In this document: piece after piece, positions 5,932-44,486 of the stretch
How positions within the stretch are numbered: the stretch's first letter is position 1
Layout: every line of letters starts with the position of its first letter
Source: Patescibacteria group bacterium
Lineage (GTDB): Bacteria > Patescibacteriota > Patescibacteriia > UBA10025 > JAHIVO01
Reading direction: 5' to 3'
Assembly: GCA_043808365.1 (NCBI GenBank)
Contig: JAZDEZ010000007.1
Span: 9,637 to 73,636 of the forward strand
DNA: 64,000 nt
Made by a program: the position numbers and the translations under genes
The notes under the pieces: generated by a model
Database searches by the model: none
Seen by the model: the letters and a program-made list of their open reading frames with translations, nothing else
What the model was told of the DNA's origin: nothing

Positions 5932-7191
5932 CTATACGGCCAGCCGGCTGTTAAGGCTATTGATGGCTAAAAATTCATCTAATAATAAATAAGGCTGATT
6001 GCCCTGCATGCGCTTGCGGATGATTTCGGCGATAGCCAGGTTTTCCTCCATGCTTTCCCGCCCGATCTGCAAATAGAGTCGGCTGACGGGCGACTGCCTC
6101 CAGGCTTTTATCGCTTCAACCTTGACGGCCCACGAGTCGTGCTCCAGGAGGTCGATTTTTTCCAAAATTCGGTCAGCCGCTTCCGCCGGATTGGTGCCTT
6201 GGCGCCTGAATTCATCCAGGTCAATATCCGCCAATTCCTCAACCGGGCCCATGACCCTGGCCGGACGCCTGATGTCATTCACCTGCGGCCGGGCTTGTTC
6301 GACCTGACGCACCTGCACGATCCGGGGCATTTCATCTACCGGCCTGGTATACATGTCTGGTGTCGATACCGGCGCTGGTTTGGATAGTTCGGCTGGCTGT
6401 GGTTTGAGTTTTGGCAGAGGTTTTTGAATTTCTTTTTTTATTTCCTCAGCTAATTGGCCAATGTCCTCCTTGACCGTGGCGGTCGGCACGGCTGGCGGCG
6501 GCGGCTTGACCGGCTGTGGACGCGGGATAAATGCCGGGGGGGCGTCTGGCTTTGGCATGGCCGCCACGACCGATTCGATTGGCTTATGGACCGGCTGGGC
6601 GCTGATTTGTTTTTCCACAAATTGGATGATTTTTGCCGCTTGATCGGCTGGTATCTCCAGTCCGCCGATTTTCTTCGACCTGGACAATACCTCTGCCGTT
6701 TCCACGGAATCACGCAGGTCGCGCAGTCTGGACTCGATTACTTTACCAAAGCGTTTTTGCATGACATCATCCGTAAAACTCAGCTGAAAATCGCTGATCA
6801 CGGCACGCACAATTTCTTCCACTGACAAAACTGAATGGCCGGCCGGCGTCGCTACCATCTGGTTAAGCTTCGCCTGTTGTTCGTGAATCTCAAACTCATC
6901 ATCCGGTGCCATAAAGGCACTGGCATGCGGTGATGATGAAATCGGCGGTGCGGCTTTGATTGGCACTGCCTCTCGAAGAGGAGGTATTCCTGGCTGGGGG
7001 GAAACGACAGGAGGACGAACTGGCAGAACTCTTTGCGGCTGTGGGGGAGGGGTAACAGTCGCCTTTTTTACGGAAAAATCAGTAATTTTGTCATCCAAGA
7101 CCTTCTTAAACTGCCCGCTTTTGTCCTTTATTAAAAAACCGGCGGGCAAATCTGAATCCTGGTTTGCGCTATTCACGTTCAAATTATCCAT
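5932..7191 (-). CDS. proline-rich hypothetical protein; first gene of the T4SS-like string
   Basis: 419-aa ORF with long Pro-rich tracts (TPPPQPQRVLPVRPPVVSPQPGIPP; PDAPPAFIPRPQPVKPPPPAVP) and a helical C-terminal part. A near-consensus promoter lies ~50 nt upstream. Confidence 0.6.
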   Translation of the reverse strand: MDNLNVNSANQDSDLPAGFLIKDKSGQFKKVLDDKITDFSVKKATVTPPPQPQRVLPVRPPVVSPQPGIPPLREAVPIKAAPPISSSPHASAFMAPDDEFEIHEQQAKLNQMVATPAGHSVLSVEEIVRAVISDFQLSFTDDVMQKRFGKVIESRLRDLRDSVETAEVLSRSKKIGGLEIPADQAAKIIQFVEKQISAQPVHKPIESVVAAMPKPDAPPAFIPRPQPVKPPPPAVPTATVKEDIGQLAEEIKKEIQKPLPKLKPQPAELSKPAPVSTPDMYTRPVDEMPRIVQVRQVEQARPQVNDIRRPARVMGPVEELADIDLDEFRRQGTNPAEAADRILEKIDLLEHDSWAVKVEAIKAWRQSPVSRLYLQIGRESMEENLAIAEIIRKRMQGNQPYLLLDEFLAINSLNSRLAV

Positions 7192-7249: not shown

Positions 7250-7278
7250 ATTATATCATAATTTCACGAGAAAATCAA
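7250..7278 (-). promoter_or_regulatory. sigma70-type promoter of the T4SS-like operon
   Basis: The minus strand reads TTGATT (7273-7278), a 17-nt spacer, then TATAAT (7250-7255), counted by hand. The -35 box overlaps the left arm of the inverted-repeat module at 7273-7393. Confidence 0.55.
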
Positions 7279-7393
7279 ACCCGTTAGAAAATGCATAAAG
7301 AATCATTCCCTGATAGAAGGACAGTAATTGATATTAACTTCCCTTAATTGTATTAACAATAATTGTGCATTTACTAACGGGGTTGCCCCGAAT
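7273..7393. repeat. inverted-repeat-flanked ~120-bp promoter-upstream module, copy A (partner at 57101-57221)
   Basis: The arms are aatcaaacccgttagaaaatgca (left) and tgcatttactaacggggttgccccgaat (right). The 70-bp core at 7296-7365 matches the core of copy B at 62/70 positions, but only after reverse-complementing one copy (hand alignment). Confidence 0.7.
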
Positions 7394-7451
7394 ATAATCA
7401 GGAGCCTCCCACAAACACCCAAACGCGTGCCTTTTTTATTTCTATGGTAAT

Positions 7452-7488
7452 CCCCCTCTCCCTAAGAGAGAGGGCTCTGGGGTGAGGG
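7452..7488. repeat. GC-rich REP-like hairpin (CCCTCTC..GAGAGGG + CTCTGGGGTGAGGG), copy 1 of 3
   Basis: The stem pairs 7454-7460 with 7468-7474, followed by a ggggtgaggg tail. The same hairpin-plus-TGAGG design recurs at 48658-48688 and 51245-51290. A second perfect 8-bp hairpin, gcgcaagc/gcttgcgc, follows at 7495-7516. Confidence 0.55.
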
Positions 7489-7533
7489 AAGGTCGCGCAA
7501 GCAGAGACGCTTGCGCTCGGAGGATATGCCGAT

Positions 7534-12603: not shown

Positions 12604-14178
12604 TCAATTTTTAATAATATTTCCCGATTGTAAATCCATGGTAACTTTATCTCCAGTCCTGAACTCTATAGTAGCATTTTTCGTACCAATAATGCAGGGT
12701 AATTTCAATTCACGCGAAATAATAGCTGCATGACAGGTCAGGCCGCCTTCATCTGTAACGATGGCTGTTGCCTTGCGCAACAATGGCACGAAATCAGGCC
12801 TGGTCATACTGGCCACTAGAATCCTGCCGGGCACAAACTTTTCTTTGTGCACATCTTTGACCACCTGCACTATGCCGCTGAACTTTTTTACTGGTGCACT
12901 GGCCACTTGGCCCGCGACCACGCCTTTTTTCAGCTGGAACTGGGATTGGATAGTATGGAAAATCTTCCGTGCCTGTTGGCCATAATATACTGTCGGAACG
13001 GCCGTTTGGCCTTTCTTTTCAATAAAATACACGGAGAGCGTCTGCCGGCCACGGATATGTTTTCTGCCTAGCTTTTTTCCATGTAACAATAAGTTCTTCA
13101 CATCAATTGGCAAGTAATAACGCACGTCATGCACCGGCAACCTAAACCGTTTTGCAATCTCCAGACAATACTGGTTCAAGCAGTCATTTCCGCGCAGCAT
13201 ATAGGTTTTCCGCTCGTCAATCCACTCGCCGAAAAACTGCACTAGCTTGAAGTGTTGCATTAAGCTTCGTGAAAAACGATATTTTTTTTCCAATTGTCGG
13301 TGTGTTTTGCTCAGCCGCTTTACTTTTGTTCGTAAACTTATCAATTCACGTGTAATTTCCTTATAGGATTTATACTTCACCTCCTCTTTTACTTTAGCAA
13401 AAAAATGTTCGGCCGAAAGCCGCAAAACAGTAGCGTACGAATTATTAGTCCAGTAGAACCTCCTACTTAAAACATTCAGCGCTTTCTGCCAATGCATATC
13501 GATGTCACAGATTTTCAACCGTAGCAACAGTCTTTTTCGCGGATAAAGTCCTAATGCGATCTGTAGAATTTCCTGACGTTCCTGTTCCATAAAACTAAGA
13601 TGGGCTGGCGTGGCCATCACTCTCGTAATCTCCAACACCTGGCCCTCTCGGATATTCGGTAATTCCTTACGCACTAAGGACTCTAACTCATATGCAGTGA
13701 AAACGTCGACGCATTCTGGCGTGACTACGTAGCGTGTGAAATCTAGATAATACTTCAAAAAAAGTTTATATGATTGCCATATCTGACGGTTTGATAGCTG
13801 TCTGGCCTGTCGTGAAAAAACCAAAGCGATATCGACGAATTTCTTATCAAAATCACTAAGACGGCGCTTCTTGACAAGGTACTGAGGGTCCCTTGTAATC
13901 TGGTTATAAATATACCAATATACTTTCGCTTTCTCATCCTGCGGGGTCAATTCATGAAAAAAATCTCCGGGCGTAGACACAAAAACGGACAACGTCAAAT
14001 ACTTCGGATGGAAGTACCGGCATTGCTCAACAAAACAGTGCAATGGATACATGACAAACTGATAAACCATGGGGGATTTTTCCTCCCACCAGGTATGGCG
14101 TTTGATGACTTTTAATAATTTCTGATAATTCATTTTTTCTTCATCAAGGCTCTGTTTTTCTAATAAACTAATTCCCAA
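12604..14178 (-). CDS. swivel-domain paralog 1 of 8: divergent N-terminal domain + C-terminal PEP-utiliser mobile (phosphohistidine) domain, no ATP-grasp
   Basis: 524 aa. The C-terminus is [49 protein letters not shown]. Internal islands are FYWTNNSY, EWIDERK and EIAKRFRLPVHDVRYYLP. Confidence 0.8.
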   Translation of the reverse strand: MGISLLEKQSLDEEKMNYQKLLKVIKRHTWWEEKSPMVYQFVMYPLHCFVEQCRYFHPKYLTLSVFVSTPGDFFHELTPQDEKAKVYWYIYNQITRDPQYLVKKRRLSDFDKKFVDIALVFSRQARQLSNRQIWQSYKLFLKYYLDFTRYVVTPECVDVFTAYELESLVRKELPNIREGQVLEITRVMATPAHLSFMEQERQEILQIALGLYPRKRLLLRLKICDIDMHWQKALNVLSRRFYWTNNSYATVLRLSAEHFFAKVKEEVKYKSYKEITRELISLRTKVKRLSKTHRQLEKKYRFSRSLMQHFKLVQFFGEWIDERKTYMLRGNDCLNQYCLEIAKRFRLPVHDVRYYLPIDVKNLLLHGKKLGRKHIRGRQTLSVYFIEKKGQTAVPTVYYGQQARKIFHTIQSQFQLKKGVVAGQVASAPVKKFSGIVQVVKDVHKEKFVPGRILVASMTRPDFVPLLRKATAIVTDEGGLTCHAAIISRELKLPCIIGTKNATIEFRTGDKVTMDLQSGNIIKN

Positions 14179-14292
14179 TTCTCAAATATCCAATATCTAA
14201 TGAATACCCAATGACTGAATTACTAATAACCAATTTGACATTTAGGAATTGTGATTTCATTGGTAATTGAAAATTGGATATTGGTAATTACC
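14174..14292. repeat. CCAAT-word palindromic intergenic element, copy 2 of 3
   Basis: The sequence runs cccaattctcaaatatccaatatctaatgaatacccaat ... cattggtaattgaaaattggatattggtaattacc. It shares ccaattctc....atccaatat..aatgaat..ccaat with copy 1. Confidence 0.7.
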
Positions 14293-14293
14293 A

Positions 14294-15760
14294 TCATATC
14301 TTCCTAACTATACCACTTGTAGCGTCAACTTCAATGCGATCACCGGTCTTGAAAACTTGTGTGGCAATTTTTGTGCCGACGATGCATGGCACGCCCAGCT
14401 CGCGCGCCACAATGGCGGCGTGGCAATTCAAACCGCCGTCATCAGTGACAATAGCCGCGGCCTTATGCATGGCCGGTACGTAATCAACAGTGGTCATTGA
14501 GGCGACCAGTACGTCTCCTTTCCTGATCAACGAGTTCGCTTCTCTCGCTGACATGGCACGTAACACCCGTCCACGCACCAGACCGTGGTTTGCGGGAATG
14601 CCTCGCACTTCAGCTTCTCGCCGTGCCCGGAGCTGGTCGAGTACCAACGCCTTCACCAACCGATAGGCATGACGGCCGGTAGCTTCCTGAAATTTATTCC
14701 CGTTTATGACCCACGTCAAGCCCGTTCGACGCGCCCGCAGCACCTTCCCGGACACCCGTTCCCCCCGCGAACACAATGAACGCACCTCATCATTCATATA
14801 ATAAACAATGCTAGCAAAAGGAATCCTGAAACGCCTGGACATCTCCTGTAATGCCTTGAATACGATTTGACTGCACCGCGTCTGGCCTTCTTTACGCCAG
14901 TCATGGAGCTGGGAAAATTGGTCGAGGATGGCGAAATACCGCCACAAAATTTTTCTCGGTAAATGGTACTTTCGGAATATCCGAGCCCGCTGCCGTAAAA
15001 TATCTGTTGCATAATTATCTATACGCCGTGCCATCGCACGCCTCTTGCCAGTTGACATTTTTTTTAACGGCCGTAAATCCCGACGCGCCTTTTCAGGCGT
15101 GATCACATGGCCGCCATCCCAACTCATCACGATCCAGTCAAGCCGGTTGAGTACATCTGTGAAATCCAACATTGAAACATATTGCTTACCGCTCAACCGC
15201 AATAACTCACGCTGATATTGCTGAACGACTGAAAGGTAGGCTGGCTTCATCATAGTGATCAAACCTCCTGGATCTGCAACCAAATGTCTATACGGCTCCA
15301 ATGCTTTGGCTAAAATCCCATCGAAATAATCATCAAAAAGATCGACCGTATATTCGGACAAGGTGATATTGTCCCAAAACATCCTCTTGCCTCGGGCATA
15401 TATTACATACAACTCCCTATCCGAAAGCCGCTCCGCGCGTAACATTTTATGCTTGAGGTCCGGCAGAGCAATGCGCATTTTATTCAGTGTCCGCTCAAAC
15501 TGCCTGACAAAACGAGAAAATACTCCCGGACGATGAATCCAGGCGCTGAACCAGCGGTGGAATTTCTTCTCCATCAGGTCCAGGTCTCTTGCCCACCAAA
15601 AATTATTGCCCACAAAAGACATCACCTCATAATGCCGAGAAAAATACGGATACTGCCTGACGTCACGCCTAAAAATCAGGTCAAGATAGGCAGAGATGCC
15701 CTGTGGGTAAACGCGGTCCCTAACGTAAACACGCCAATTGGTTTTTTTCACGTTTTTCAT
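14294..15760 (-). CDS. swivel-domain paralog 2 of 8
   Basis: 488 aa. The C-terminus is GDVLVASMTTVDYVPAMHKAAAIVTDDGGLNCHAAIVARELGVPCIVGT. The start overlaps the stop of paralog 3 by 4 nt. Confidence 0.8.
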   Translation of the reverse strand: MKNVKKTNWRVYVRDRVYPQGISAYLDLIFRRDVRQYPYFSRHYEVMSFVGNNFWWARDLDLMEKKFHRWFSAWIHRPGVFSRFVRQFERTLNKMRIALPDLKHKMLRAERLSDRELYVIYARGKRMFWDNITLSEYTVDLFDDYFDGILAKALEPYRHLVADPGGLITMMKPAYLSVVQQYQRELLRLSGKQYVSMLDFTDVLNRLDWIVMSWDGGHVITPEKARRDLRPLKKMSTGKRRAMARRIDNYATDILRQRARIFRKYHLPRKILWRYFAILDQFSQLHDWRKEGQTRCSQIVFKALQEMSRRFRIPFASIVYYMNDEVRSLCSRGERVSGKVLRARRTGLTWVINGNKFQEATGRHAYRLVKALVLDQLRARREAEVRGIPANHGLVRGRVLRAMSAREANSLIRKGDVLVASMTTVDYVPAMHKAAAIVTDDGGLNCHAAIVARELGVPCIVGTKIATQVFKTGDRIEVDATSGIVRKI

Positions 15761-17199
15761 CTGACGATTCTTACGATACCATGGTTAGCCCGCACCTCCA
15801 CGGTCATCCCGTCTTTTAACACTTTGGTGCCGACTTTTGTCCCGATGACACATGGGATGTTCAATTCACGGGCAACAATGGCTGCATGGCACGTGATGCC
15901 CCCTTCGTCAGTAACAATGGCGGAGGCTTTTTTTAAGGCAGGCATGAATTCCGGACGGGTCATGGAAGCCACAATCACGTCACCGCGACCGACTTTGGCA
16001 ATGGACAAAATATTTTTACAGACAATAACCCGTCCCATGGCCGTCCCGCCATTGGCTACTGTCCCATGGATGGCGCTCCCCGTAGAAGACGAGCGCTTCT
16101 CGACTTTACGCAGCAACGACACTAACCGCCGATACTCCCTACCGCTAGCCATATATTCATTGTTCCCTGCTAAAAGAACCAGGCATCCCCTCTGCCGAAC
16201 TATAAGCTCGTGCCGCAAACCAGCCACATCGTCAATCGATCGCAACCCGAACACCTCATTCACTCCCAACTGGTATATACATGATAATGGTAATCGTACC
16301 CGTCGGGCAACCTCTTTGGCCAATGTGTCCAAATAGGAAACATTCATAAGAATGTTCGCTTTACGGTCGTCTTGCCAAATGGTCGTGAAGTCAACCAAAC
16401 TGATCAACTCTTGGACATGCTTATTTAGTTTTAAACTGGCGATTAGAGCCTTCTTTTGCCGTTTTGCCTCATTGAACTTTTCCACATGCACACCGCGGGC
16501 CGCGTACAGCCGCCGCTGGAAATCTTTGACTGTCAGATGCTTCGGTCCAGTGTAACTGTTCTGGATCCAATAGTATCTCTTTACGTGGGACAACAGTCTT
16601 TTCTGTTGTTTGGATCGCGGCGATAAGGCTATTTGGTGCAACTCCGCTTCCTGTCGGCTTATAAAAGACGATTCTGACGGGGCGGTCAACGTGGTATACA
16701 GCTGGTTGAAATCCAGCCGCGGCCCGACTGCTTGCAGCAGGGCTATTTTGAACTCTTTTTCTACGGACATCCCAATCGACTCCACCAGATGCCCGACGCC
16801 GACCGTGTCGATCTGCGCCTGGAAGCTGGCTTTGAACCAAGCGACTAGCTCCTTTTCTGATAACTTTTTCAAATCTAACCGCCAAATTCTTACTTGTAAT
16901 GCAGAAACTGATTTTATCTTTGAATAATATAAACGCTTTACCTTTTCCAAATATTTCCTGTCGCGGATCATTTTGCGTCTCACGGTTTGCCAAATCTTTT
17001 TTATGTCCGTATTCAAATACGCCATTTCTCCATAACCGTTCTGGTAGTGGAATAAAAAAGCCGAATACCCAAAACCCAGATCCTTGGCCATGTGAATACC
17101 ACTAATGGCCGAGGGTCCTAAATACAGCGGCACGGCATTGAAACCCTGGATGTACCAATCTTTCTTAATGGACTTTTTTATTTTTTGCAGTGAAGTCAT
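15757..17199 (-). CDS. swivel-domain paralog 3 of 8
   Basis: 480 aa. The C-terminus is GDVIVASMTRPEFMPALKKASAIVTDEGGITCHAAIVARELNIPCVIGT. Internal islands are YYWIQNSY and IWQDDRK. Confidence 0.8.
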   Translation of the reverse strand: MTSLQKIKKSIKKDWYIQGFNAVPLYLGPSAISGIHMAKDLGFGYSAFLFHYQNGYGEMAYLNTDIKKIWQTVRRKMIRDRKYLEKVKRLYYSKIKSVSALQVRIWRLDLKKLSEKELVAWFKASFQAQIDTVGVGHLVESIGMSVEKEFKIALLQAVGPRLDFNQLYTTLTAPSESSFISRQEAELHQIALSPRSKQQKRLLSHVKRYYWIQNSYTGPKHLTVKDFQRRLYAARGVHVEKFNEAKRQKKALIASLKLNKHVQELISLVDFTTIWQDDRKANILMNVSYLDTLAKEVARRVRLPLSCIYQLGVNEVFGLRSIDDVAGLRHELIVRQRGCLVLLAGNNEYMASGREYRRLVSLLRKVEKRSSSTGSAIHGTVANGGTAMGRVIVCKNILSIAKVGRGDVIVASMTRPEFMPALKKASAIVTDEGGITCHAAIVARELNIPCVIGTKVGTKVLKDGMTVEVRANHGIVRIVR

Positions 17200-17204
17200 A
17201 TTGA

Positions 17205-18776
17205 TTATTTTTTCCTTTCAATCACCGTCACCACCCCGTGGTTGCCGTTGACCTCGACGATGTCGCCGTCATGCAGCACTTCAGTAGCGATCTTCGTTCC
17301 GATGACGCAGGGGATATTCAATTCTCTTGCCACAATGGCCGCGTGGCAGGTGACGCCGCCTTCATTCGTAACGATGGCAGCCGCCTTTTTCATGCCCATG
17401 ATGTAGTCCGGCCGGGTCATCACGGCTACCAGCACATCGCCGGGTTTTACTTTTTTCGTTTCGGTGGCGGACTTCACGATTTTAACCGGCCCGCGAGCCA
17501 CTCCCCGGTTTGCTGACAGGCCGCGGAAATCGTTGACCGCCTGCAACGATTTTTTCTCAAAAATCTTTTTAAACATGCCACGGGCATCCGAGGTAATGAC
17601 TTCATATTTGTCCTTGCCTATTTGCAGCCACAGGCATTTCTTCCACCGGTCCCGCGCTTCTTTGGGCGTCACAAACGGTTTTTTCGTAAACAGGGAATCG
17701 ACTTCCGGCGGCGCCAGATACTTCATTTCGTGTAATGTAAAGCCAAACCGTCTGCCGATTTCTTTCAGAATAATACTACCAAAATGCGTGGACCAGTAGG
17801 TCATTTTTTTCCGGTTATCCTGCCAATAGGTGAAATCCTCAGAAATTTCTAAGAGTACACGAATTTTTTTAGAAGGTTTCAGCTTTTTAATCAGCAACTG
17901 CTTTTCCCGCAAACTATTTTTTGGCGTATTTACAATCTGGTTAATTTGCTGGCCGATGTTAATGCCCGATTTGAACACTGCCTTCAGCTCCGCCACCCAT
18001 TTATCGACATCCAAATAATTGTTATGGACATAATTATTTTTACTCCAGAAATAATCCCGTTCCTGCTTTTCCAATAACTTAAAAATAACCGGATACCGGC
18101 GGACAATCTTCTGCAAGCTTCTAATCGGAAGCTTTCGGAAACTGCCGGCCAAAGCCGGTATTTTTTCAATCCTGAAAGCGATGCGCAACAAAGCTACTTC
18201 CGCCTCGTTGATGAACGAATGGTGCACCGGCGCGGTCAGCACGGAAAAATACCTGGACAATTGTTTTTCCAGTCCCCTGGATTTCAACAAAGTCATAAGC
18301 TCTTTTTGGATCAGGAAATCCGTACCAAGGGCGAAACCATCAATAATCGAACTTGAGGTAACGAACTTTAAATCGCGTTTAATATATTCATCGTACAACC
18401 TTACTAACGGCGCATTGTCCAATTGTTTCAGGTGATCCCAATCGGTCTCCAAGCACAAACCGTAAAATGCCGCTTCATCCTCTGACCAGCGCTTCATCAG
18501 TTTCTTGGTGAAATGGTTTTCGCGCATGGCCAAACCAACCAACCGTTTGGCAATACGGTCAATGTCCTCCTGGTCAATGTACCAGTCGGATTTGTCCTGC
18601 TCGAACAAACCAAAATGGCTGGTGGCGTGGCAGCCTTCTTTTCGCGCTTCCGGCGTCAGTTCAGCCATGGAAATGAGGAAAATAAAATGCGGTGCGCCGT
18701 CAAACCGTTGATGGTACCATTTTTTACGCTGGATATGCGGCAAATATCGTCTGAGTAACCCTTTTACTAAATGCAT
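17205..18776 (-). CDS. swivel-domain paralog 4 of 8
   Basis: 523 aa. The C-terminus is GDVLVAVMTRPDYIMGMKKAAAIVTNEGGVTCHAAIVARELNIPCVIGT. Internal islands are YFWSKNNY and YWQDNRK. Confidence 0.8.
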   Translation of the reverse strand: MHLVKGLLRRYLPHIQRKKWYHQRFDGAPHFIFLISMAELTPEARKEGCHATSHFGLFEQDKSDWYIDQEDIDRIAKRLVGLAMRENHFTKKLMKRWSEDEAAFYGLCLETDWDHLKQLDNAPLVRLYDEYIKRDLKFVTSSSIIDGFALGTDFLIQKELMTLLKSRGLEKQLSRYFSVLTAPVHHSFINEAEVALLRIAFRIEKIPALAGSFRKLPIRSLQKIVRRYPVIFKLLEKQERDYFWSKNNYVHNNYLDVDKWVAELKAVFKSGINIGQQINQIVNTPKNSLREKQLLIKKLKPSKKIRVLLEISEDFTYWQDNRKKMTYWSTHFGSIILKEIGRRFGFTLHEMKYLAPPEVDSLFTKKPFVTPKEARDRWKKCLWLQIGKDKYEVITSDARGMFKKIFEKKSLQAVNDFRGLSANRGVARGPVKIVKSATETKKVKPGDVLVAVMTRPDYIMGMKKAAAIVTNEGGVTCHAAIVARELNIPCVIGTKIATEVLHDGDIVEVNGNHGVVTVIERKK

Positions 18777-18902
18777 AGGGTGGATAATTTATGCAATAAT
18801 TATAGCTTTTTTTACACAAATTACCATTAAAGGTTTGCAAGGCTTTAGCTTTTCTAAAACCTGTCATGGAATTTAAAACACGGAATCGGCCTGTTTGCCA
18901 GC

Positions 18903-20402
18903 TTACTTTCTGATAATTCTAACTGAACTATGATTGGCGTTTACCTCAATCAAATCACCATCCTTTAACACTTTCGTGGCATTGCCGGTGCCGACCACGC
19001 AAGGTATGCCCAGTTCGCGGGAAACAATGGCCGCGTGGCAGGTTACCCCGCCCTCGTCAGTAATAACCGCCCCGGCTTTTCTCATGGCCGGCACGTACTC
19101 CGGACTGGTCATGGACGCCACTAAAATATCTCCCGGCTTGACTTTTTCAATACCGTCAATGCCCTGGACCACTTTAACGATGCCGACCAGCTTACCTGAT
19201 GACGCAATTACTCCTTCCAAAAATGCGGGCGCTTTTTTAATCCGTTCTAGGCGGGAGTTTAATAAATTCCTTGCTTTAACCCCCAATAATAGGTCAACCT
19301 TATCACCGTGCCAATAGGCTAACGAGTGTCGATAGCGTTTTTTCAGAACATCAATGCCAACTTTTTTTTCATTAACTAACGCGGCGGCAAGCTCATTCGG
19401 CAGATAATATTGGATCAACTCCCGGCTTACGCCAAACCGCCGGCTGATTTCCTCAAAAAGCGCCGAGATGTAGTAATGCGCCTGGGTGAATATTTCCTTT
19501 TTATAATCAAGCAAAAAAGCCGCTTGGCGCATGCATCGAAAAAGTTTCCTGTGATAGCCGTCAAGGCGCAGCCTGTCCTCGCATTGCTTCTGTTCGGCCA
19601 CAAGTTTGGTAAAATATTCTTTGCTTTTTTCCAGGTCGTTCTCGATATTTCTTTCTCTGATAATTTTCCCTAAAACCTTTTTGAAATAAGCCGCGTCCCA
19701 TGTGTATACGCCGTAATCATACGGCACCCAGAAATACCGATCAACATGCCTCTTGATTGACTTATTTAAATCTTTTTTTTTGCTGGTTATCGCACGATGC
19801 GCGATCCGCAACAGTTCATCCTCTTCTCTTTTGACAAACGACTTGATCGGAGAAGCAATTAGCAAATTATAATATCGCAAAGCCTCACACTTATCAGGTA
19901 CTATTTTTTTTAAATGCTTTTCAAGATATCCGGCCAGTATGTCATTCAGGCTTATGACCATCGGCTCGCTGTAAAGGTAGGCAGCTTCGTATCGGCGCAA
20001 ATATCCCTGAAACAGGCGGAATAATTGATGATTTGACGCTCGGCTGAAACCAATCCTGACAATTCCGCTGGCAAATTTCAATAATTGAGGGGCTAATTTT
20101 TTAAATTTGTTGATAGTCTTTTTGATAATCCCGGGATCTCTTTTAATCATTTGGAAACTCATTTGGGAGACTGCTTTTAATCCGCTGGCGGAAGCGTACC
20201 AGAACATTGTCCCGTTTTTATATGAGGCTATAGTGGGCCCAAAGCTCCTACCGGCGAATAATTTTTTCATTGAATAAGCGTAGACCCTGCCGATTACGTA
20301 AGCATTGGGTAAAAAATGGATTTGCTGCTTCTTTTGCACTAGTAAATAGTCTTGTTTCATACCGTCCACTCTCACATTGTATATTTGAAACTTATAGACC
20401 AA
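18903..20402 (-). CDS. swivel-domain paralog 5 of 8
   Basis: 499 aa; the start is uncertain, with an alternative MKQDYLL at 20360. The C-terminus is [49 protein letters not shown]. Confidence 0.8.
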   Translation of the reverse strand: MVYKFQIYNVRVDGMKQDYLLVQKKQQIHFLPNAYVIGRVYAYSMKKLFAGRSFGPTIASYKNGTMFWYASASGLKAVSQMSFQMIKRDPGIIKKTINKFKKLAPQLLKFASGIVRIGFSRASNHQLFRLFQGYLRRYEAAYLYSEPMVISLNDILAGYLEKHLKKIVPDKCEALRYYNLLIASPIKSFVKREEDELLRIAHRAITSKKKDLNKSIKRHVDRYFWVPYDYGVYTWDAAYFKKVLGKIIRERNIENDLEKSKEYFTKLVAEQKQCEDRLRLDGYHRKLFRCMRQAAFLLDYKKEIFTQAHYYISALFEEISRRFGVSRELIQYYLPNELAAALVNEKKVGIDVLKKRYRHSLAYWHGDKVDLLLGVKARNLLNSRLERIKKAPAFLEGVIASSGKLVGIVKVVQGIDGIEKVKPGDILVASMTSPEYVPAMRKAGAVITDEGGVTCHAAIVSRELGIPCVVGTGNATKVLKDGDLIEVNANHSSVRIIRK

Positions 20403-20506
20403 CTCATGGTTCGAATCGCAAATGTCCGTTTTATAAAAAAATTCTCTGCTGCCTTTTCACAATCCTATTTATGGTCCGCCAGAGGCGGACTCCGCGAGGT
20501 GCAATG

Positions 20507-20542
20507 TTACAATTTCTTTACAACACCTCGCTCCGCATCCAC
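20507..20542 (-). pseudogene. 3'-terminal stub of a lost swivel-domain paralog
   Basis: The minus strand reads gtg gat gcg gag cga ggt gtt gta aag aaa ttg taa, which is VDAERGVVKKL*. Paralog 8 ends VDAERGVVRKL*. This stub and its 3' flank (20473-20543) align at roughly 80% with 25390-25465 by eye. Confidence 0.6.
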
Positions 20543-20609
20543 CCCGCACCACTGAAGGGTGCGGGGTTGCCGTGAATTCTTTAGTGGTTCAGGGCACCGA
20601 CAAACACAA

Positions 20610-20672
20610 TTAATGTTTTAATTTCCGCACAACGCCTTGAGTAGCGTCAACCTCCACCCGGTCTCCGTCTGC
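20610..20672 (-). pseudogene. second 3'-terminal stub of a lost swivel-domain paralog
   Basis: The minus strand reads [20 protein letters not shown]. Intact copies end ...[20 protein letters not shown]. No upstream homologous body is present. Confidence 0.6.
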
Positions 20673-20758
20673 CGATTTCGTCACCAAAAACAAACGAAGT
20701 GCAGTTTGAGGTGGTGCGAAATCGAGCATCCCGACCCGCCACTGGGCGGGGAGGGATC

Positions 20759-22252
20759 TCACTTTTTTAACTTTTTAATAATACCTTTAGTCGCATCTAC
20801 TTCAACTCTGTCCCCATCCTTTAACACTTTCGTGGCCATTTGGGTGCCGACCACGCAGGGGATTTTCAATTCGCGGGAAACAATAGCCGCGTGGCAGGTC
20901 AGGCCGCCTTCATCGGCGATGATAGCCTTAGCCCGGCGGATGGCGCTGATGTATTCCGGAGCAGTCATAGTAGTGACTAAGATGCGGCCCGGGGGGAAGC
21001 GCCGCAGATCGGCGTGGTGCCGCACCAGAAAAACGCGGCCCCTGACCGGCTGGCCAGCTGAAAAAACAACCAAACCCTCCAGCTCCCTGCCTTTGGTAGC
21101 GGCTCGGCGCTGCCAATAGCGACGGCTGATTATTTGCGCGGCCCGCCCGGTGAAGGAGTGAAAAACTCTGCTGTTATAGTGCACGACAAACAGGCGCCGG
21201 CGCGATTTTAGCTCCTTAATCAGGCCTGCAGAGGGATGAAGGTTTATTTCCCGGTACCAGGCCATATGGTAGAGCGCCGGCGCCACTTGGTTGCGCCTGG
21301 AGAATTCATGCACAAATAAATCTAAATAATGAAGATAACAGAAAATCAAGCCTTTCCGCTGGTCCTGCCACCAGATGCAATACGCTAAACCATCACTGAT
21401 TTTTTTTATTAGCTTTTTCCGGCGCACCAGGGACAACGCCTGGCGTTGGTTAGTTTGGGCGAACGCCAGCTGACGGTAAATCTCCGATATCTGGCGGGCT
21501 GGACTTAATTTTTTCTTCATAAAATGCCTGATCCGGCCCAAGAAATGTGCCTCTGGCATGACCCGGACCGCTCCGTAACTATTCCCAATCCAAAAATATT
21601 TCCGGCAATGCGCCGTTAACCGGTGTTGAAAATCTTTTTTGCCGTAACGGCTGGCGACTTTTAACAAAGAAATTTCCTCCTCCTGGTAAAAAGACGGCTT
21701 CATCGGCGCGCTCAGGTGCGAGAGCGCGAGCATCTGCTTCTGTCCAGCCAGGCCTTCTTCGGCTAATTCCCGTTTCAAAATCGCCTCACCGCCGTAAGCG
21801 CTTATTTCCGGAACAACGCCGGGCTCCCAAAATTTAAAGATTAACCTGTTCAAGAGCCGCCAATCGCGCTCTAACGCCGCCCCTGACATTTTCCTCAAGG
21901 TCAGAGCGTCAAATTTCCCGCAAAAGGAATAAAGCCGGCTGACGCGCAGCTGCCACAGCTTGAAAAATTTCCGCCGCTTCCCGGTTAAAATTATCTTTCT
22001 GAACATCTCGCTGCCTGTTTTTTGCAACGGCTCCAATTCATTAACGAAAAGCATCCTGCCGCCCCTGAAAATCTCGTAGCCCGGGGGCCAAACATAGTGG
22101 TGAGGCCGGCCGGGATAATCGTGAAAAATCGACAGCCAAGCGTCGACATTTATCAAATACCCCGGGATAGGCCCCCAGCGGAAAAGCGGTTCTTTTAAAT
22201 CATGCATAATATCTATATTTTCCATTATTAAACGTAAAAAATCAAGCACCAT
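20759..22252 (-). CDS. swivel-domain paralog 6 of 8
   Basis: 497 aa; the true start is possibly MHDLKEPLF at 22207. The C-terminus is [49 protein letters not shown]. Internal islands are YFWIGNSY and WWQDQRK. Confidence 0.8.
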
Positions 22253-22438
22253 TACCGCTAAACAGGCGCCATGATCCGTCTACTAAAAGCAGCCTATTTT
22301 TAATAACCCAAAACCGTCCGGACAACTGCCAGCCTTTTCTAATGGCGGAATATGTGCAACAAAACCCGCGAGGAATAGTTTTCCTGCTCTGCCGTCCCCT
22401 CAACAAGCGCGCCTTCTCTCATCCTTGATTCCATAGAT

Positions 22439-23731
22439 TTATATCATTATTTCGTTTAACATTTTCTTGTCCTCCTCCATCTGTGCGATCAAATCTTCCT
22501 TGGACTGGAATTTTTTCACCTCGCGGATTTTCTCCAGCACCTCCACCCGTACCTCTTGGTTATGCAGTTCACCGTTGAAATTGTGGAGATACAATTCCAG
22601 CGATAATTTGTCATTGAAAGTTTCCTTGAAACCGAAATGCAGGAGCGCCGGATAAATTTTCCCATCAGCGGCTACTTTCGCGGTATAAATGCCATGGGTT
22701 AAATCCAAATCAGTCTTGTCCAGGTTCACCGTCGGCGTGCCCAAACTTTTGCCCCGGCCTTCGCCGGCAATAGCCTTGGCCGTAAAATTGACGGTTTTGA
22801 CCTTCCCGCGACGGACCACCATATACATAGCGCCAATCAAAACAATAGCGGCGCCAATCTGCGTGGCATTCAGCGTATTGTGGTTGAAAAAATAATCCAG
22901 AATCACCGCGGAGAACGGCCAGAACAGCTCGCAAATCGTGGCGACGGAAGCGCTTACCCGGCGCAAGCCAAAGTAGTAGAAGAACATGGCCACCGCGCCG
23001 CTGGTAAAGACAATCAAGGCGAACATCCACCACTGTGTACTGGAAACGATTGAATACTGGCTGAAACCGCTGGAAAAAATCAGATACACGCCAGTAATGA
23101 TAATGGTCAGCCCGAAACGTAATGCGGCCGTGCTCTTGAAATCCAAGTGATTAACCAGCCGCTTGCCGAACACCGTGGACGAACCGAAAGCAAATGCCGC
23201 TACAATTGCATAAAACGCGGCGCTATGCCAGAAATCGATGTCGCTCAGCACAAAGCCGTGTTTGCCAAATGCAAGAAAATAAGCGGCTACTACCGCCAGG
23301 CCCGCCCATGCATAAAACTGCTTGGAAAGTTTTTCCTTGAGCAACAAACGGGCTATTAATAGCGCAAATAGCGGCTGGAGTTTTTGCAAAATAACTACCG
23401 TGGCAAAGGTGACTACGCCGTCCATCGCGGAAAAAAATGCCTGGGTGATGGCCAATGTCCCCAGAAACCCGCCGAAAAAACTGACCCACATCGCCGCGCC
23501 CCAGCTTTTCCTGTCTAAATTCTTCAGCTGTCGCAGTCTGGGGATTAAAAATGGCACCAGTACGATAAATCCAAGCAAATGCTCGGTAAAAACGACCAGG
23601 CCGGCCGGCAAACTGTACAATTTTGGCCGGATGAACGTGCCGTCCAGGCTCCAGAACAAAGCGGCCAGCATTATTGCTAATGCTCCAACAAGCATGGTTG
23701 TATTGAATTTCTTGTTTAGCATCTGAGTCAT
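22439..23731 (-). CDS. fusion protein: 10-TM EamA/DMT-type transporter + C-terminal riboflavin kinase domain
   Basis: 430 aa. About 310 aa are polytopic with two EamA-like halves. The C-terminal part then reads GEGRGKSLGTPTVNL...HGIYTAKV...LELYLHNFNGELHNQEVRVEVLEKIREVKKFQSKEDLIAQMEEDKK. This matches riboflavin-kinase motifs (GrG..lG.PT.N; GvY; E.h...f.g.lY...i.v.f...iR.e.kF.s...L..qi..D). Confidence 0.75.
   Translation of the reverse strand: MTQMLNKKFNTTMLVGALAIMLAALFWSLDGTFIRPKLYSLPAGLVVFTEHLLGFIVLVPFLIPRLRQLKNLDRKSWGAAMWVSFFGGFLGTLAITQAFFSAMDGVVTFATVVILQKLQPLFALLIARLLLKEKLSKQFYAWAGLAVVAAYFLAFGKHGFVLSDIDFWHSAAFYAIVAAFAFGSSTVFGKRLVNHLDFKSTAALRFGLTIIITGVYLIFSSGFSQYSIVSSTQWWMFALIVFTSGAVAMFFYYFGLRRVSASVATICELFWPFSAVILDYFFNHNTLNATQIGAAIVLIGAMYMVVRRGKVKTVNFTAKAIAGEGRGKSLGTPTVNLDKTDLDLTHGIYTAKVAADGKIYPALLHFGFKETFNDKLSLELYLHNFNGELHNQEVRVEVLEKIREVKKFQSKEDLIAQMEEDKKMLNEIMI
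22442..22804 (-). other. riboflavin-kinase domain portion of the fusion ORF
   Basis: This is the last ~121 codons of ORF 22439..23731. The GEGRGKSLGTPTVNL motif is encoded around 22725-22770. Confidence 0.65.
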
Positions 23732-23746
23732 TGGTACATTGTAATG

Positions 23747-25309
23747 TTATTTTAACTTTTTTACAATCCCCTTTGTCGCGTCTACTTCAACCAAATCGCC
23801 GTCTTTCAAAACTTGTGTGGCGATTTTCGTGCCGATGATGCAGGGTTTTTTCAGTTCCCGGCTGACGATGGCCGCGTGACAGGAAATACCGCCCTCATCA
23901 GTGACAAATGCCGAAGCGACCTTCATGGCTGGCACATAGTCTGGCATGGTCATGCTAGTGACGAGGATATCCCCAAGTTTAACTTTAAAAGATTCCTTGC
24001 TAGAATGGAGTATTTTGACCGTGCCGCGGACGATCCCAATATATGCTGGCATACCTTTAATCTCAGACACGTTTTTAGTCGCGCCTTCAATATTATTCCG
24101 TATCATGCCTGCTAGCTGGAATGGAAGCAGGTATATTTTATTTTTATCAACAATAAATCCGTGGCCTCTTTTTCGACCAGTAATTGGCAACCTTTTAAAG
24201 AATGGCTTGGATAGAGCATCTAATGTCTCAAAATAGTACAATGCCATAATATCCTTCACGTTTATCGTCTTTGCGATACGCCACAAGATACTACGGATAC
24301 GGTACGCCCCTTCGATGATTACTTCGCGGCGGCGCAGTCGAAAATACGGCAAATCGCTTGCCAAACGGATCAAGGTGCGTGTTGATGAAGAAAACCTTAG
24401 TTCCCGCATCAGTTTCAGTTTTTCCTGCTTGGCCCTTTTTTCTTCCTTCATAAATATCGCATAACGCCTACATGGTTTATTTTTTACCATCTGGCGCAAT
24501 TCTACAATAAAATGCTTCAACGGCTCAATCTTCATTATCAAATAACTGTCTTCAGCCCAAGCGAATAAGTGAAAGATTTTTTCAACTTTTCGCTTGAGCT
24601 TGTTCAATGGAATCCTGCTCCACGATTTTTTTAAAATGTCCCGACGAAAGTTCGGTTGTTTAGCAATTTCCGCAGCTAAGACCATCATCGCTCTGTGTCG
24701 ACCTTCCAGTCCGGAAACACGAAATGGTCGGATCAGTTTCTGCAATATTTCCTGATATGCCGGCGAGGTCGGGAGGACAATCTTACCAAGCGCCTGTTCG
24801 ATGGTCTTGATAATCCAATCCTCCACGCCCAACGGCGGCCAAAGCGCACCCGCCACCATTTGTGATTCACGGACAAACACACTAAAAGCCCGGCGTAACT
24901 CATGGGGTGCATCTGTAGCCCCGTGCTGTTGTGCAACTCGGTCCATAATGACCAAATACCTAATGCACTCTTTATCGATTTCACGCAACATGCGTTTCAG
25001 AAATGAAATACTCCTACGGCACCGGTCTACCAGCAAATCGCGTAATTTAAAAAAATCCCCTTCCTCTGCATAGACATCTTCATTGAGTACTATTTGCACA
25101 CGCAAACAGTTATCATAGGAAAAGCGCGGATTTTTTAAAACTGCTCCCGTCCTGATCAGTGAAGTAAAAAGTGGAGAATTCGGCCGCTTTACGGCCTTGT
25201 AGAATTTTTTATCCTTCACAAGCTTGCGGAATACTGCTGGTACGACGTGATATCTCCTACCTTCAAAAGAATAAATTTTGAAAAATGGTAATTTGTTACT
25301 TGAAGTCAT
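23747..25309 (-). CDS. swivel-domain paralog 7 of 8
   Basis: 520 aa. The C-terminus is [49 protein letters not shown]. Confidence 0.8.
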   Translation of the reverse strand: MTSSNKLPFFKIYSFEGRRYHVVPAVFRKLVKDKKFYKAVKRPNSPLFTSLIRTGAVLKNPRFSYDNCLRVQIVLNEDVYAEEGDFFKLRDLLVDRCRRSISFLKRMLREIDKECIRYLVIMDRVAQQHGATDAPHELRRAFSVFVRESQMVAGALWPPLGVEDWIIKTIEQALGKIVLPTSPAYQEILQKLIRPFRVSGLEGRHRAMMVLAAEIAKQPNFRRDILKKSWSRIPLNKLKRKVEKIFHLFAWAEDSYLIMKIEPLKHFIVELRQMVKNKPCRRYAIFMKEEKRAKQEKLKLMRELRFSSSTRTLIRLASDLPYFRLRRREVIIEGAYRIRSILWRIAKTINVKDIMALYYFETLDALSKPFFKRLPITGRKRGHGFIVDKNKIYLLPFQLAGMIRNNIEGATKNVSEIKGMPAYIGIVRGTVKILHSSKESFKVKLGDILVTSMTMPDYVPAMKVASAFVTDEGGISCHAAIVSRELKKPCIIGTKIATQVLKDGDLVEVDATKGIVKKLK

Positions 25310-25341
25310 TTTTTAAAATTCATATTAAGTATAATGAGACA

Positions 25342-25371
25342 TTAATTTAATTTTTTAACAACGCCCTTATT
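25342..25371 (-). pseudogene. possible very short 3' stub of a swivel-domain paralog
   Basis: The minus strand reads aat aag ggc gtt gtt aaa aaa tta aat taa, which is NKGVVKKLN*. Family C-termini read TKGIVKKLK* and [10 protein letters not shown]. With only ~10 codons, chance resemblance is possible. Confidence 0.35.
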
Positions 25372-25426
25372 CGTCCTCCATAGGCGCCCGTCCGCCTCTG
25401 GAGGAGACTCCGCGAGACGTAATGAT

Positions 25427-26845
25427 TTATAATTTTCTTACGACGCCTCGCTCCGCATCCACCTCCACCCGGTCGCCATTTTTTAATACGCTCATCGCCT
25501 TATAAACGCCTATGACGCACGGTATTTTGAGCTCGCGCGAGACAATGGAAACGTGGGCGGTAATGCCGCCTTCCTCGGCCACTATAGCCGCCGCTTTTTT
25601 CATAATAGGCACGAAATCAGGGGTAGTGTTGTTAACCACGAGGATATTGCCTTTTTTGAATTTAGGAAAATCTTTCTGCGACCTGACAATACGCACTCGC
25701 CCACGGGCCAAGCCAGGGGAAGCCACGCGCCCCGACTTGAGCGAATGGCTAGTCTGGTAAAAACGAGATAGGAAATATTTTGCTTTTTTACCGTAAAAAA
25801 TTTCAAAACGCCCTTTATATGAATAGTACACATACAAGCCTTTTCTCTTTATTAAAACGTCTTGATCAGGCATCTGCCCGCTGGAAATCATGGTAAAAAC
25901 TTCCTCCACGCTCATCCGCCACATATCCCGGATCCTGACGCCGTATTTTTTCGACATGGCGGCAAAAACAGGCATGAAATAAAAATTCGCCAGATTTACC
26001 TGCAATTTGACGGCGTCCTTCAGGTATGGCATCATCGCTAACAATTTTCGTAACGGCCAGTGCCGACGTTTAACTAACATCCTAGCCTTATCCCGACGGC
26101 GTAAGCTTTGTTTTCGCTCAATATGCATTTCAGCCAGCACCTTTTCCGGCTGCCTGGAGCCCCAATACTTGATTTGCTGGATATAATAATTCAGCGGACG
26201 AGGCGCTTCATTATGCCAACCCATGGTACAAGCGCCAAATTGCCGATATATTTTTTTGGCCGAAGCGATAAGCTTCGTTTTTTTTCGGTCGTGCCGCCAG
26301 TGTAATGCGGCATGCAATATGGCCTCCTTTTCCTGCATAATGACCGAACTTTTTTCGGGGAATGACAGTGCCTGTATGATTTCCGCCGAAAGATAGCCAC
26401 AATGGTCGGCCATAAATTCCTGCAAAGCGGCATCCGTCTTTCTCAATATATTGATTCCCCTGATCGGCAGATACCTGGCCTGAAGATAGCATAAAAACAA
26501 ACAGCCCAATACCGAAGGCCGGACTTCGCCATGCCAATTATCAACCTCACTTTTTAGCGCTTTGACCGTCCGGCACGACTCCACATACTGCCGAGTAAGC
26601 CAGGCCGGGTGATTCCAATACCGTAAAAATATTTTTCTAAAAGGGCGCCGAAGGTTGTCTTTTGGATGGAAAAAATTAATGCGTTCTTTCCGGGAAACGC
26701 CGATGTAATTCGATTTCGGCAGGTATTTATCGCTATACGACACCGCATGATCAGCCGTACTCAATAATAGAAAATACCCCGGCCTGTCCGCGAAATCAAG
26801 ACAGTCCGTTTCCTGTAAGTATTTTTTACCCCAAATTTTCATCAT
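25427..26845 (-). CDS. swivel-domain paralog 8 of 8 (most divergent swivel motif)
   Basis: 472 aa. The C-terminus is [49 protein letters not shown], with the His retained. The start ATGATG overlaps the TGA of the upstream mini-ORF. Confidence 0.8.
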   Translation of the reverse strand: MMKIWGKKYLQETDCLDFADRPGYFLLLSTADHAVSYSDKYLPKSNYIGVSRKERINFFHPKDNLRRPFRKIFLRYWNHPAWLTRQYVESCRTVKALKSEVDNWHGEVRPSVLGCLFLCYLQARYLPIRGINILRKTDAALQEFMADHCGYLSAEIIQALSFPEKSSVIMQEKEAILHAALHWRHDRKKTKLIASAKKIYRQFGACTMGWHNEAPRPLNYYIQQIKYWGSRQPEKVLAEMHIERKQSLRRRDKARMLVKRRHWPLRKLLAMMPYLKDAVKLQVNLANFYFMPVFAAMSKKYGVRIRDMWRMSVEEVFTMISSGQMPDQDVLIKRKGLYVYYSYKGRFEIFYGKKAKYFLSRFYQTSHSLKSGRVASPGLARGRVRIVRSQKDFPKFKKGNILVVNNTTPDFVPIMKKAAAIVAEEGGITAHVSIVSRELKIPCVIGVYKAMSVLKNGDRVEVDAERGVVRKL

Positions 26846-28630: not shown

Positions 28631-28708
28631 AACAAAAACTTCCCGTGGTTTTATTGGGAAGATTGATATGTTTAGGTTATAACGACATCGGGGAATAGTC
28701 AAATAACC

Positions 28709-35233: not shown

Positions 35234-35255
35234 GAAAAATGTTATTTACCCGCGC

Positions 35256-44200: not shown

Positions 44201-44486
44201 TCGCGATTTTGGTGGCGACGTTATAAGCCAAATTATTCAGGTAGTTTTTCAGGACATTCTTGAAAGCCACGTCAGCGGCCTTTTTCAATACTTTGCCGAT
44301 CTTCTCAAAAATAGTCCGTGGGGCGTCTTTAACCGTGATGGTGGGAGTGGGCACGGGAGTAACCTGCGCGCGCGCCTGCCGAGGCGCCAGCGCAATAGGC
44401 AATATTAATTGCGCAGCAAAAAAGACCAGCACTCCGGCCAGGATCCATCGCTGTTTTCTATTGAATTTTTGCGTGCCTTTCGCCAT
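35256..44486 (-). CDS. 3076-aa Cys-rich secreted/anchored giant surface protein with two tandem dockerin-type modules
   Basis: A single uninterrupted ORF. The N-terminal anchor is [23 protein letters not shown]...ARAQV. Cys residues are very numerous throughout. It carries four EF-hand-like dockerin segments, and lectin/CBM-like stretches such as [11 protein letters not shown]. Confidence 0.8.
39520..39930 (-). other. dockerin-type repeat region (4 Ca-binding segments, forming 2 modules) within the giant ORF
   Basis: The four segments are [83 protein letters not shown] and [27 protein letters not shown]. Confidence 0.7.
39558..39836. repeat. two ~81-bp direct repeats (39558-39638 and 39755-39836) inside the dockerin region
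   Basis: The repeat reads gaggtaggtgatgtccgccatatcgatcacccc(a/g)tcg(t/c)cgttcacgtcgcc(a/t)gtgtctgggtt(a/g)gccggagc(t/c)ggtccgcc. I count about 6 differences by eye. Confidence 0.7.

Follow-up and report, generated by a model that had tools for sequence, protein, structure and literature searches.

A promoter-abutting hairpin element in a Patescibacteria contig, with its core in opposite orientations between fixed flanks at two operons

The DNA analysed here is a stretch of 64,000 nucleotides (the window) from contig JAZDEZ010000007.1 (positions 9,637 to 73,636, forward strand) of the Patescibacteria group bacterium assembly GCA_043808365.1, a metagenome-assembled genome (MAG) of an uncultivated member of the candidate phyla radiation. 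Two minus-strand operons of the window are each preceded by a full copy of a short hairpin element. Copy A (7276-7385) lies upstream of an operon resembling a type IV secretion system (T4SS), which encodes a 419-aa protein of unknown function (5932-7191), a PrgI-like protein, a 228-aa protein with TraC-like orthologues in relatives, a VirB4/TraG-type ATPase, and a T4SS pilin; a co-directional PPDK_N gene lies upstream of the copy. The 419-aa protein is identical to V1668_01015, a MAG protein at NCBI from a 138.6-kb contig. Copy B (57104-57213) precedes an operon with genes for a histidine kinase, for a 239-aa protein of unknown function, and for a response regulator that has two receiver domains but neither an output nor a DNA-binding domain. 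Each copy consists of inverted arms of 20-23 nt around a core of 69-70 nt. The element is about 110 nt long, and the lineage-specific promoter-upstream stretch, flank included, measures about 110-150 nt. Between the two copies, only the repeat-bounded core is inverted, and the flanks are fixed.

The promoter of the T4SS-like operon (7250-7278, minus strand) has a -35 box TTGATT (7278-7273), a 17-nt spacer, and a TG-extended -10 box TATAAT (7255-7250), with the ATG at 7191. The kinase-operon promoter (57078-57106, minus strand; ATG at 57049) reads TTGACT-17-TAAAAT with a TG before the -10 box and was called by the promoter scan. An earlier note on this DNA had proposed that the outer half of the left arm doubles as the -35 box of a minus-strand promoter TTGATT-17-TATAAT; this promoter was likewise called by the scan and is kept in relatives. 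Whichever way the core lies, the fixed promoters of both operons, complete and near-consensus, stay outside it. The note had also described a motif TTGATA-16/17-TATTAA inside the core, directed away from the operon in copy A and toward it in copy B. The motif is present at that place and in those orientations, being a weak TTGATA-17-TATTAA on the plus strand of copy A (7328-7356), but it fails the promoter scan because its -10 box TATTAA has no T at position 6.

In copy A, the promoter-proximal arm (7276-7295; CAAACCCGTTAGAAAATGCA) can be extended to 7298, and its final three nucleotides are the TTG of the -35 box. The AT-rich core of 70 nt (7296-7365) adjoins the promoter with its 'X' end (taaagaatcattccctgatagaa) and is followed by the distal arm (7366-7385; TGCATTTACTAACGGGGTTG) and by a distal flank (7386-7419) of kinase-locus type, which reads CCCCGAATATAATCA, then GGAGCCTCC and CACAAAC, and is oriented as in copy B. 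The distal arm and the flank CCCCGAATATAATCA together form a small hairpin, CGGGG-TTG-CCCCG (7378-7390). In copy B, the proximal arm (57104-57124; CAAGCCCATTAAGAAAATGTA), the TTG of which is again that of the -35 box, is the most decayed arm, with four differences including one indel. The 69-nt core (57125-57193) is inverted relative to copy A and adjoins the promoter with its 'Y' end. The distal arm (57194-57213; TGCATTTTCTAACGGGGTTG), of which the outer 8 nt are ancestral at the kinase locus, precedes a distal flank (57214-57258) that is an ancestral, conserved kinase-locus block (..AAGGAGTCATTCATTGCATTCGGGA in gene orientation), and the small hairpin at 57206-57218 spans arm and flank. An outward promoter-like sequence, TTTACT-17-TATAAT (10/12), is made up of the far arm and flank of copy A (7370-7398, plus strand) and points away from the T4SS-like operon; its counterpart in copy B, TTTTCT-17-TGCAAT, was not called by the scan.

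The arm motif has three occurrences in the window at three or fewer mismatches, compared with 0.01 expected. The four arms of copies A and B differ from one another solely at singleton positions, and therefore the arms alone cannot separate a flip of the core from an inversion of the whole element. Folded as single-stranded DNA, both copies are more stable than their shuffled versions (z = -6.6 for copy A and -3.8 for copy B). The element has no coding capacity, and its terminal inverted repeats around non-coding DNA are those of a miniature inverted-repeat transposable element (MITE). No target-site duplication was found: the bordering pentamers (AAAAT and CCCCG for copy A, AAAGT and TCCCG for copy B) hold no direct repeat, and several trial boundaries gave none common to both copies. 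In a search of the window, Rfam returned nothing at the gathering threshold, and a local search gave a chance U4atac match only (E = 0.4). Integron attC-like sites were considered, as GTTAGAA/TTCTAAC resemble core sites, and were rejected on reading the sequence, the polarity being wrong.

The alignments upheld the geometry that the earlier note had described. The right arm and its flank have the same orientation in both copies (7366-7393 and 57194-57221, 26/28 identical), and the left arms are imperfect reverse complements of the right arms, with 18 of 20 positions complementary in copy A (21/23 if extended) and 17 of 21, with an indel, in copy B. The core matches only when one copy is reverse-complemented (62/70, versus 42 matches in 76 gapped columns in the forward orientation), with local alignment scores of 148 and 59, respectively. 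This reverse-complement homology spans exactly arm to arm. The flanks beyond the far arm are in register and in the same orientation, matching at 7/8 and 11/15 positions over 8 and 15 nt, and only 0.03% and 0.015% of the window k-mers, respectively, match the flank equally well; when the whole element was modelled as inverted, similarity between the flanks vanished (p = 0.3 and 0.7). Within the arms, the inner ends go with the core, and the outer ends stay put with the flank. The promoter-side flanks of the copies are also similar (p = 0.001), which is uninformative because T4SS-type and kinase promoters are alike even in relatives that lack the element. Copies A and B are 87-89% identical and differ at 11% of positions plus an indel, and their arms are no better conserved than the core (89%). 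Opposite cores in two copies prove one past inversion, not an operating switch.

The polarity of the cores was compared with that of an older partial copy, copy C (57778-57827, minus strand), which has an X-like end (57801-57827) next to a single arm (57781-57800; TATAATTTCTAACGAGATTG) that lacks a partner. Its arm ends on the TTG of TTGACT (57783-57778), as in copies A and B, and is identical to the near arm of copy A at 15 of 20 positions. The X part matches in register at 16/27 positions, a level reached by 0.025% of the window 27-mers, and over the whole 47 nt, copy C is 72% identical to copy A (34/47), with none of 2000 shuffles reaching its score. The X end adjoins the promoter in copies A and C and the Y end does so in copy B, and hence a single flip, in copy B, accounts for all three copies; copy B also has the most decayed arms. 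Copy C lies upstream of a 129-aa membrane-protein gene (57324-57713), the second of two paralogues (36% identical). Behind these tandem genes, a 35-nt terminator tail with its downstream sequence is 94% identical (57250-57284 and 57800-57834), which points to a recent gene conversion event in the intergenic DNA. Only one such membrane-protein gene is present in relatives.

Further copies or homologues were sought with the arm pattern in 596 Gb of species-representative genomes, with a 20-mer of the core in JGI metagenomes, and with arm and core patterns in IMG/VR. These searches gave chance matches only, and they were judged as such because BLAST of all the fetched loci showed solely the pattern itself. 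A second assembly of the same organism, which might hold the other orientation, was not retrieved by exact look-up of two downstream proteins, and the 90% clusters of these proteins held no second identical sequence.

The orthologous loci of seven relatives (R1 to R7) were then compared with those of the window. At the T4SS-like locus, where gene products are 67-69% identical to those of the window, R1 (contigs L032-L034) and R2 (L035) keep the PPDK_N gene followed by the T4SS-like operon, with a spacer of 137 nt versus 449 nt in the window. The homology runs from the gene through the -10 and -35 boxes and ends at 7282, inside the near arm, and the promoter is conserved in L032 and L035, both of which lack the element. 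The R3 contig with this locus (L116) begins within the gene and hence offers no promoter for comparison. Seven kinase loci were available, namely those of R1 (L046 and L047), R2 (L045), R3 (L041), R4 (L043), R5 (L044), R6 (L115), and R7 (L117), with kinases 87-92% identical to that of the window. The spacer, -10 box, leader, and ATG are kept in all seven, and the -35 box in all six that reach that far, the promoter being conserved in L041, L043, L045, L046, L115, and L117. The R5 contig starts just past the -35 box, leaving only the spacer, -10 box, and leader visible. None of the seven kinase loci carries the element, and the DNA upstream of the -35 box is unalignable between loci. As the element is missing at the orthologous loci, it was gained at both loci in the lineage of the window. 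Arm-like strings in relatives (TAATATGCT and GTAAGAAAAT) were considered as a conserved operator motif and rejected, as shuffling placed them at chance level. The R5 contig (JGI 3300037067; kinase 91.7% identical) breaks off just within the -35/spacer region, 51 nt before the ATG, and this break, where the hypervariable repeat-bearing DNA begins, may reflect a repeat or heterogeneity.

The distal side of the element has a different history. In gene orientation, the sequence at the far arm of copy B reads ..AAGGAGTCATTCATTGCATTCGGGA followed by CAACCCCG, and it aligns with kinase-locus sequences of R6 (..AAGGAGGTCCTTCGTTTCACTCGGGC followed by CAATCCCCG) and R3 (..GAGGTCCTTCATTCCACTCGTGA followed by CAATGTCACG). 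The similarity of the flanks is significant for copy B with R6 (p < 0.0004) and R3 (p about 0.0007), and it is weaker for copy A with R6 (p about 0.03). The CAAyCCCCG with which the far arm of copy B starts is common to the R6 and R3 kinase loci. The small GC hairpin of this block keeps its structure despite sequence change (CGGGG-CAA-CCCCG, CGGGC-CAAT-CCCCG, and CGTGAC-AAT-GTCACG), and R3 has no long repeat at the kinase locus. The distal block GGAGG..CAYTCGNGNCAAY is conserved at the kinase loci of several species, R2 having a partial motif only. A small open reading frame (ORF) in this block (AGGAGG, then ATT/GTT) was discarded as a candidate, its frames and starts varying between copy A, copy B, R3, and R6. 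Since R6 and R3 carry the flank of copy B and the outer 8 nt of its far arm and lack the element of the window, both predate the element, and the repeat arose in place. The flank of copy A reads GGGAGGCTCCTGATTATATTCGGGG followed by CAACCCCG, and the T4SS locus of relatives has nothing of this kind. Copy A bears a kinase-locus flank, which identifies it as a segmental copy of the region upstream of the kinase operon, set against the T4SS -35 box without a change of orientation; the shared flank makes the copied unit larger than the arm-to-arm element. The possibility raised in the earlier note, that a small MITE was inserted in both orientations, is therefore largely set aside, as the far flank and outer arm of copy B are orthologous in relatives without the element and copy A carries part of that flank.

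From these comparisons, the element probably originated by growth of a repeat in place, a segmental copy, and a single flip in copy B. A seed hairpin upstream of the kinase operon would have grown inward into the 20-23-bp repeat, its far arm beginning in the ancestral small GC hairpin. The block comprising the ancestral flank, far arm, core, near arm, and -35 box would next have been copied in the same orientation before the T4SS-like operon, probably through ectopic recombination with the similar -35 to -10 regions as its anchor, and would there have replaced the short hairpin that relatives have at this position. The core of copy B would later have been inverted by exchange between its arms. 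Replication template switching and recombination between short inverted repeats are known from other bacteria, and both are candidates for this step.

Hairpins of unrelated sequence stand at the same place in relatives. Those with a 3' arm ending no more than 2 nt from the first T of the -35 box were found at the T4SS locus of R2, at the kinase loci of R3 and R6, and in the window. The R2 hairpin has 9 bp and a loop of 9 nt (AATCCCTTG-N9-CAAGGGATT, followed by GAAT). The R3 hairpin, with 9 perfect base pairs (11 pairs by the scan), was called terminator-like by the scan, its stem ending on the TTG and its tail being ACTTTTTGGT. R6 (L115, positions 1-200; Logan SRR22388171) has a repeat of its own abutting the kinase -35 box, namely CAATCCCCGCACCATTCCA, a 56-nt core, and TGGAATGGTGTGGGGATTG followed by ACT (19 nt, one mismatch). 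It shares with the window only the outer CAAyCCCC, and its core has no significant homology to the window core in either orientation. By a perfect-stem statistic, the R2 T4SS, R3, R6, and copy A hairpins each rank in the top 0.6-2% of background positions. The recurrence of a hairpin in one register, although the sequences are unrelated, is better explained by selection on pairing, as in a terminator or insulator, than by recognition of the site by a protein. The R6 core also holds a 16-nt duplicate of the kinase leader (ATAATACAAAAATAAA), and the RNA fold of R6 has a z-score of -4.6.

The RNA folds of copies A and B are dominated by the long stem, which has 20-23 bp and is followed by the tails ATTTTCTC (A) and ACTTTTAT (B) with five T in eight positions. 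On this basis, we tentatively propose that the element could be a terminator-like insulator hairpin fused to the promoter, with a neutral loop orientation, a role that we hold to be possible rather than probable. In read-through RNA from the co-directional upstream gene, the arms would pair into a long stem, directly followed by the T-rich '-35 plus spacer' sequence (UUGAUUUUCU in A and UUGACUUUUAU in B), and upstream transcription would end at the start of the promoter. Transcription of the operon would then start from its own fixed sigma-70 promoter, and the 64-70-nt loop would be a passenger of irrelevant orientation. The earlier note had offered, as one of its two readings, a palindromic operator pair whose spacer orientation is irrelevant; our proposal stays close to its view of the spacer and takes the pair as a hairpin, not as operators.

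Several points weigh against this explanation of origin and function. The loop of 64-70 nt is far beyond that of typical intrinsic terminators (3-8 nt), for which reason neither copy is called as a terminator by the scan. A canonical terminator (57273-57304) already lies about 60 nt upstream of copy B, and a second one looks redundant. Such a hairpin is missing from the kinase promoters of R1, R2, and R7 and is hence dispensable. The flank similarity between copies A and B is short and is significant only when anchored, an unanchored local alignment giving p of about 0.04-0.06, and the copies were counted in one 64-kb window of the MAG contig. Taken as a whole, origin and function together, the explanation falls slightly short of an even chance.

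One alternative is an active inverton, in which a recombinase encoded elsewhere would flip the core at both loci and phase-vary the T4SS-like and two-component operons, the assembly having caught opposite states. Measured against published definitions and sizes of invertons (PMC11602134, PMC5903667), the inverted-repeat-bracketed segment with fixed flanks is present, and only the core is flipped. As in the promoter invertons of E. coli fimS, the Bacteroides Mpi promoters, and C. difficile Cdi1-7, a short intergenic segment beside a surface or secretion operon and a two-component system is enclosed by inverted repeats of about 20 bp, and the flanks stay while the core occurs in both orientations, but here at two paralogous loci instead of a single one. 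The inner arm ends move with the core and the outer ends remain with the flank, which fits exchange inside the repeat. Arms of 20-23 bp common to two loci recall regulons in which a single master invertase acts (Mpi, RecV), the genes of invertases often lie far away from the sites served, and surface or secretion operons and two-component systems are typical neighbours of invertible sites (PMC5903667). However, the complete TG-extended promoter of each operon lies outside the invertible part, the core has no convincing promoter, its motif failing the scan at TATTAA, and at 64-70 bp it is small beside the promoter switches of fim (296 bp) and Photorhabdus (266 bp) (PMC5903667). The arms of copy B pair at only 17/21 positions with an indel, and the arms are no better conserved than the core. 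The R6 repeat at the same place has unrelated inner arms and core, which better fits selection on structure, and a single flip explains all three copies. The ORFs scanned in the 64 kb yielded no tyrosine or serine recombinase domain, in line with the earlier note's remark that the window holds no invertase; the only recombinase-like gene is a RAYT-like HUH enzyme without adjoining arms. A full-text literature search retrieved no paper joining 'inverton' with Patescibacteria. We consider an active inverton unlikely, and equally so the corollary that, in a bacterium of the candidate phyla radiation with a minimal genome, both loci belong to a small regulon controlled by an invertase, with phase-variable tuning of a T4SS-like apparatus and a two-component system. 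Just as doubtful is a control region acting at the DNA level, in which the arms, with or without the distal block, would be regulator sites, and copying would have wired the T4SS-like operon and the 129-aa membrane-protein gene to kinase-operon control, the spacer being irrelevant. Three promoters do bear an arm in the same register against the -35 box, the distal block is conserved across kinase loci (in R2, only partially), and its orientation relative to the promoter is kept in the copy. Yet the arms are conserved in no relative, and the palindromes at orthologous promoters are unrelated to them, an unusual pattern for an operator. The operon's own response regulator consists of two receivers with no DNA-binding domain, and the arm centres are about 90 bp apart, roughly 8.5 helical turns.

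A small non-autonomous MITE- or REPIN-like element with the arms as its ends, which would have inserted in opposite orientations at two promoters and might be mobilised by the RAYT-like HUH enzyme (28016-28631), would account for the homology running exactly arm to arm and for the absence of the element from the orthologous sites of relatives. Its geometry of two inverted ends of about 20 nt around a spacer of about 70 nt, intergenic and folding into a single-strand hairpin, is that of REPINs, which are mobilised by RAYTs (PMC3337134, PMC3116915; criteria from PMC3337134), and both a RAYT-like gene and another dispersed palindromic family occur in this genome. Against mobility stand the missing target-site duplication, the ancestral state of the outer far arm and flank of copy B, and the flank that copy A shares in the same orientation, which no unit running from repeat end to repeat end would carry along and which loses all similarity if the whole element is taken as inverted. 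All three copies, moreover, sit in the same register against a -35 box. The arms are not palindromic REPs, as only the far arm forms a small hairpin, with the flank, and the near arms form none; the spacer forms small local hairpins at most and is conserved, unlike REPIN spacers; the copied unit includes locus-specific flank; and no arm or copy is found beside the RAYT-like gene. The known copies number 2.5 (two full and one partial in 64 kb), and the 596 Gb of genomes, JGI metagenomes, and IMG/VR gave chance matches only. We consider such an element very improbable. Least credible of all, to the point of being nearly negligible, is a core mis-oriented at one locus during metagenome assembly. 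In favour of such an error are the MAG origin of the sequence and the difficulty that de Bruijn graphs can have with inverted repeats at small k. Against it, 11% of positions and an indel distinguish the copies, which are hence distinct loci, the arms of 20-23 nt are shorter than the usual final k, and the flanks on both sides are unique and syntenic with relatives.

The feature combines known things in a lineage-specific form: a hairpin abutting a promoter, a segmental copy, and the inversion of a spacer between repeats. Like intrinsic terminators that overlap the next promoter in compact genomes, it has a GC-containing stem and an immediate T-rich tract between co-directional genes, but the loop is 64-70 nt instead of 3-8 nt, and termination here is predicted. 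The Correia elements of Neisseria are MITEs carrying promoter parts; they share with the present element a length of about 100-150 bp, terminal inverted repeats, a position by promoters, and ends contributing -35-like sequence. In contrast to them, it has no duplication of TA or another target, the terminal 8 nt of one arm predate it, and the -35 and -10 boxes are ancestral. Template switching at quasipalindromes likewise involves short inverted repeats, an inverted spacer, fixed flanks, and lineage-specific inward growth of the repeat (the window versus R6), whereas the mechanism proposed here is drawn from sequence alone and is indistinguishable from RecA-dependent or site-specific exchange.

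Other repeats and genes of the window were recorded alongside the element. A second dispersed palindromic intergenic family of about 115-135 nt occurs at 2735-2870, 14179-14293, and 46438-46566 (also at 28017-28041), with a CCAAT-rich left half and an ATTGG-rich right half (six CCAAT triplets versus 0.03 expected). The copy at 46438-46566 has a fold z-score of -4.4, and the copy at 2701-2904 occupies a site within the T4SS-like operon at which relatives have only about 30 nt. The RAYT-like Y1 HUH transposase gene (28016-28631, minus strand) scored 72 bits against the NCBIfam REP_Tyr_transpos model (cut-off 80), with readable HVH and QYIKRNPV motifs. ATTGG repeats stand at its 3' end, and the CCAAT/ATTGG family, not the hairpin element, may therefore be its REPIN-like partner. 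A GC-rich palindrome (CCCCGCCTGCC...GGCGGGCAGG) lies in the middle of this gene (28355-28385) and again upstream of a 3076-aa ORF (44517-44547). GC-rich hairpin pairs without T-runs (e.g., gcgcaagc..gcttgcgc and ccctctc..gagaggg) follow several genes (7440-7520, 20403-20758, 25310-25426, and 48640-48717); they may be a local style of terminator or RNA end, and such pairs make up much of the extra 200 nt upstream of copy A.

Eight tandem paralogues of about 470-525 aa with conserved 168-nt 3' ends occupy 12604-26845 (minus strand), with an EamA/riboflavin-kinase gene between them. Synteny with relatives places them in the PEP-utilizer (PPDK-like) family, and a stand-alone PPDK_N gene adjoins them. 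The region at 30050-44486 (minus strand) holds two giant, internally repetitive ORFs of 1727 and 3076 aa and has a GC content of 0.54-0.57 versus about 0.48 elsewhere. The leucyl-tRNA synthetase (48718-52473, minus strand) has 1251 aa, with a serine-hydrolase/alpha-beta-hydrolase domain inserted after the editing domain; the same insertion is found in relatives, one of which has an added NUDIX domain.

If the inverton explanation were true, the candidate phyla radiation would gain its first reported invertible control element. This element would front a T4SS-like operon, the apparatus of which plausibly serves contact with other cells, and phase variation in these uncultivated organisms would be directly testable from existing metagenomic reads. 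The element is also a caution for inverton callers that work without reads, as paralogous copies with fixed flanks and opposite cores amount to one historical inversion, not a switch. If the favoured explanation, that of a hairpin grown in place, copied, and flipped once, is true, the two loci would be a clean natural example of the turnover of promoter-upstream DNA in very compact genomes, in which a hairpin grows in place at a -35 box, is copied with its flank to a second promoter, and has its loop flipped without consequence.

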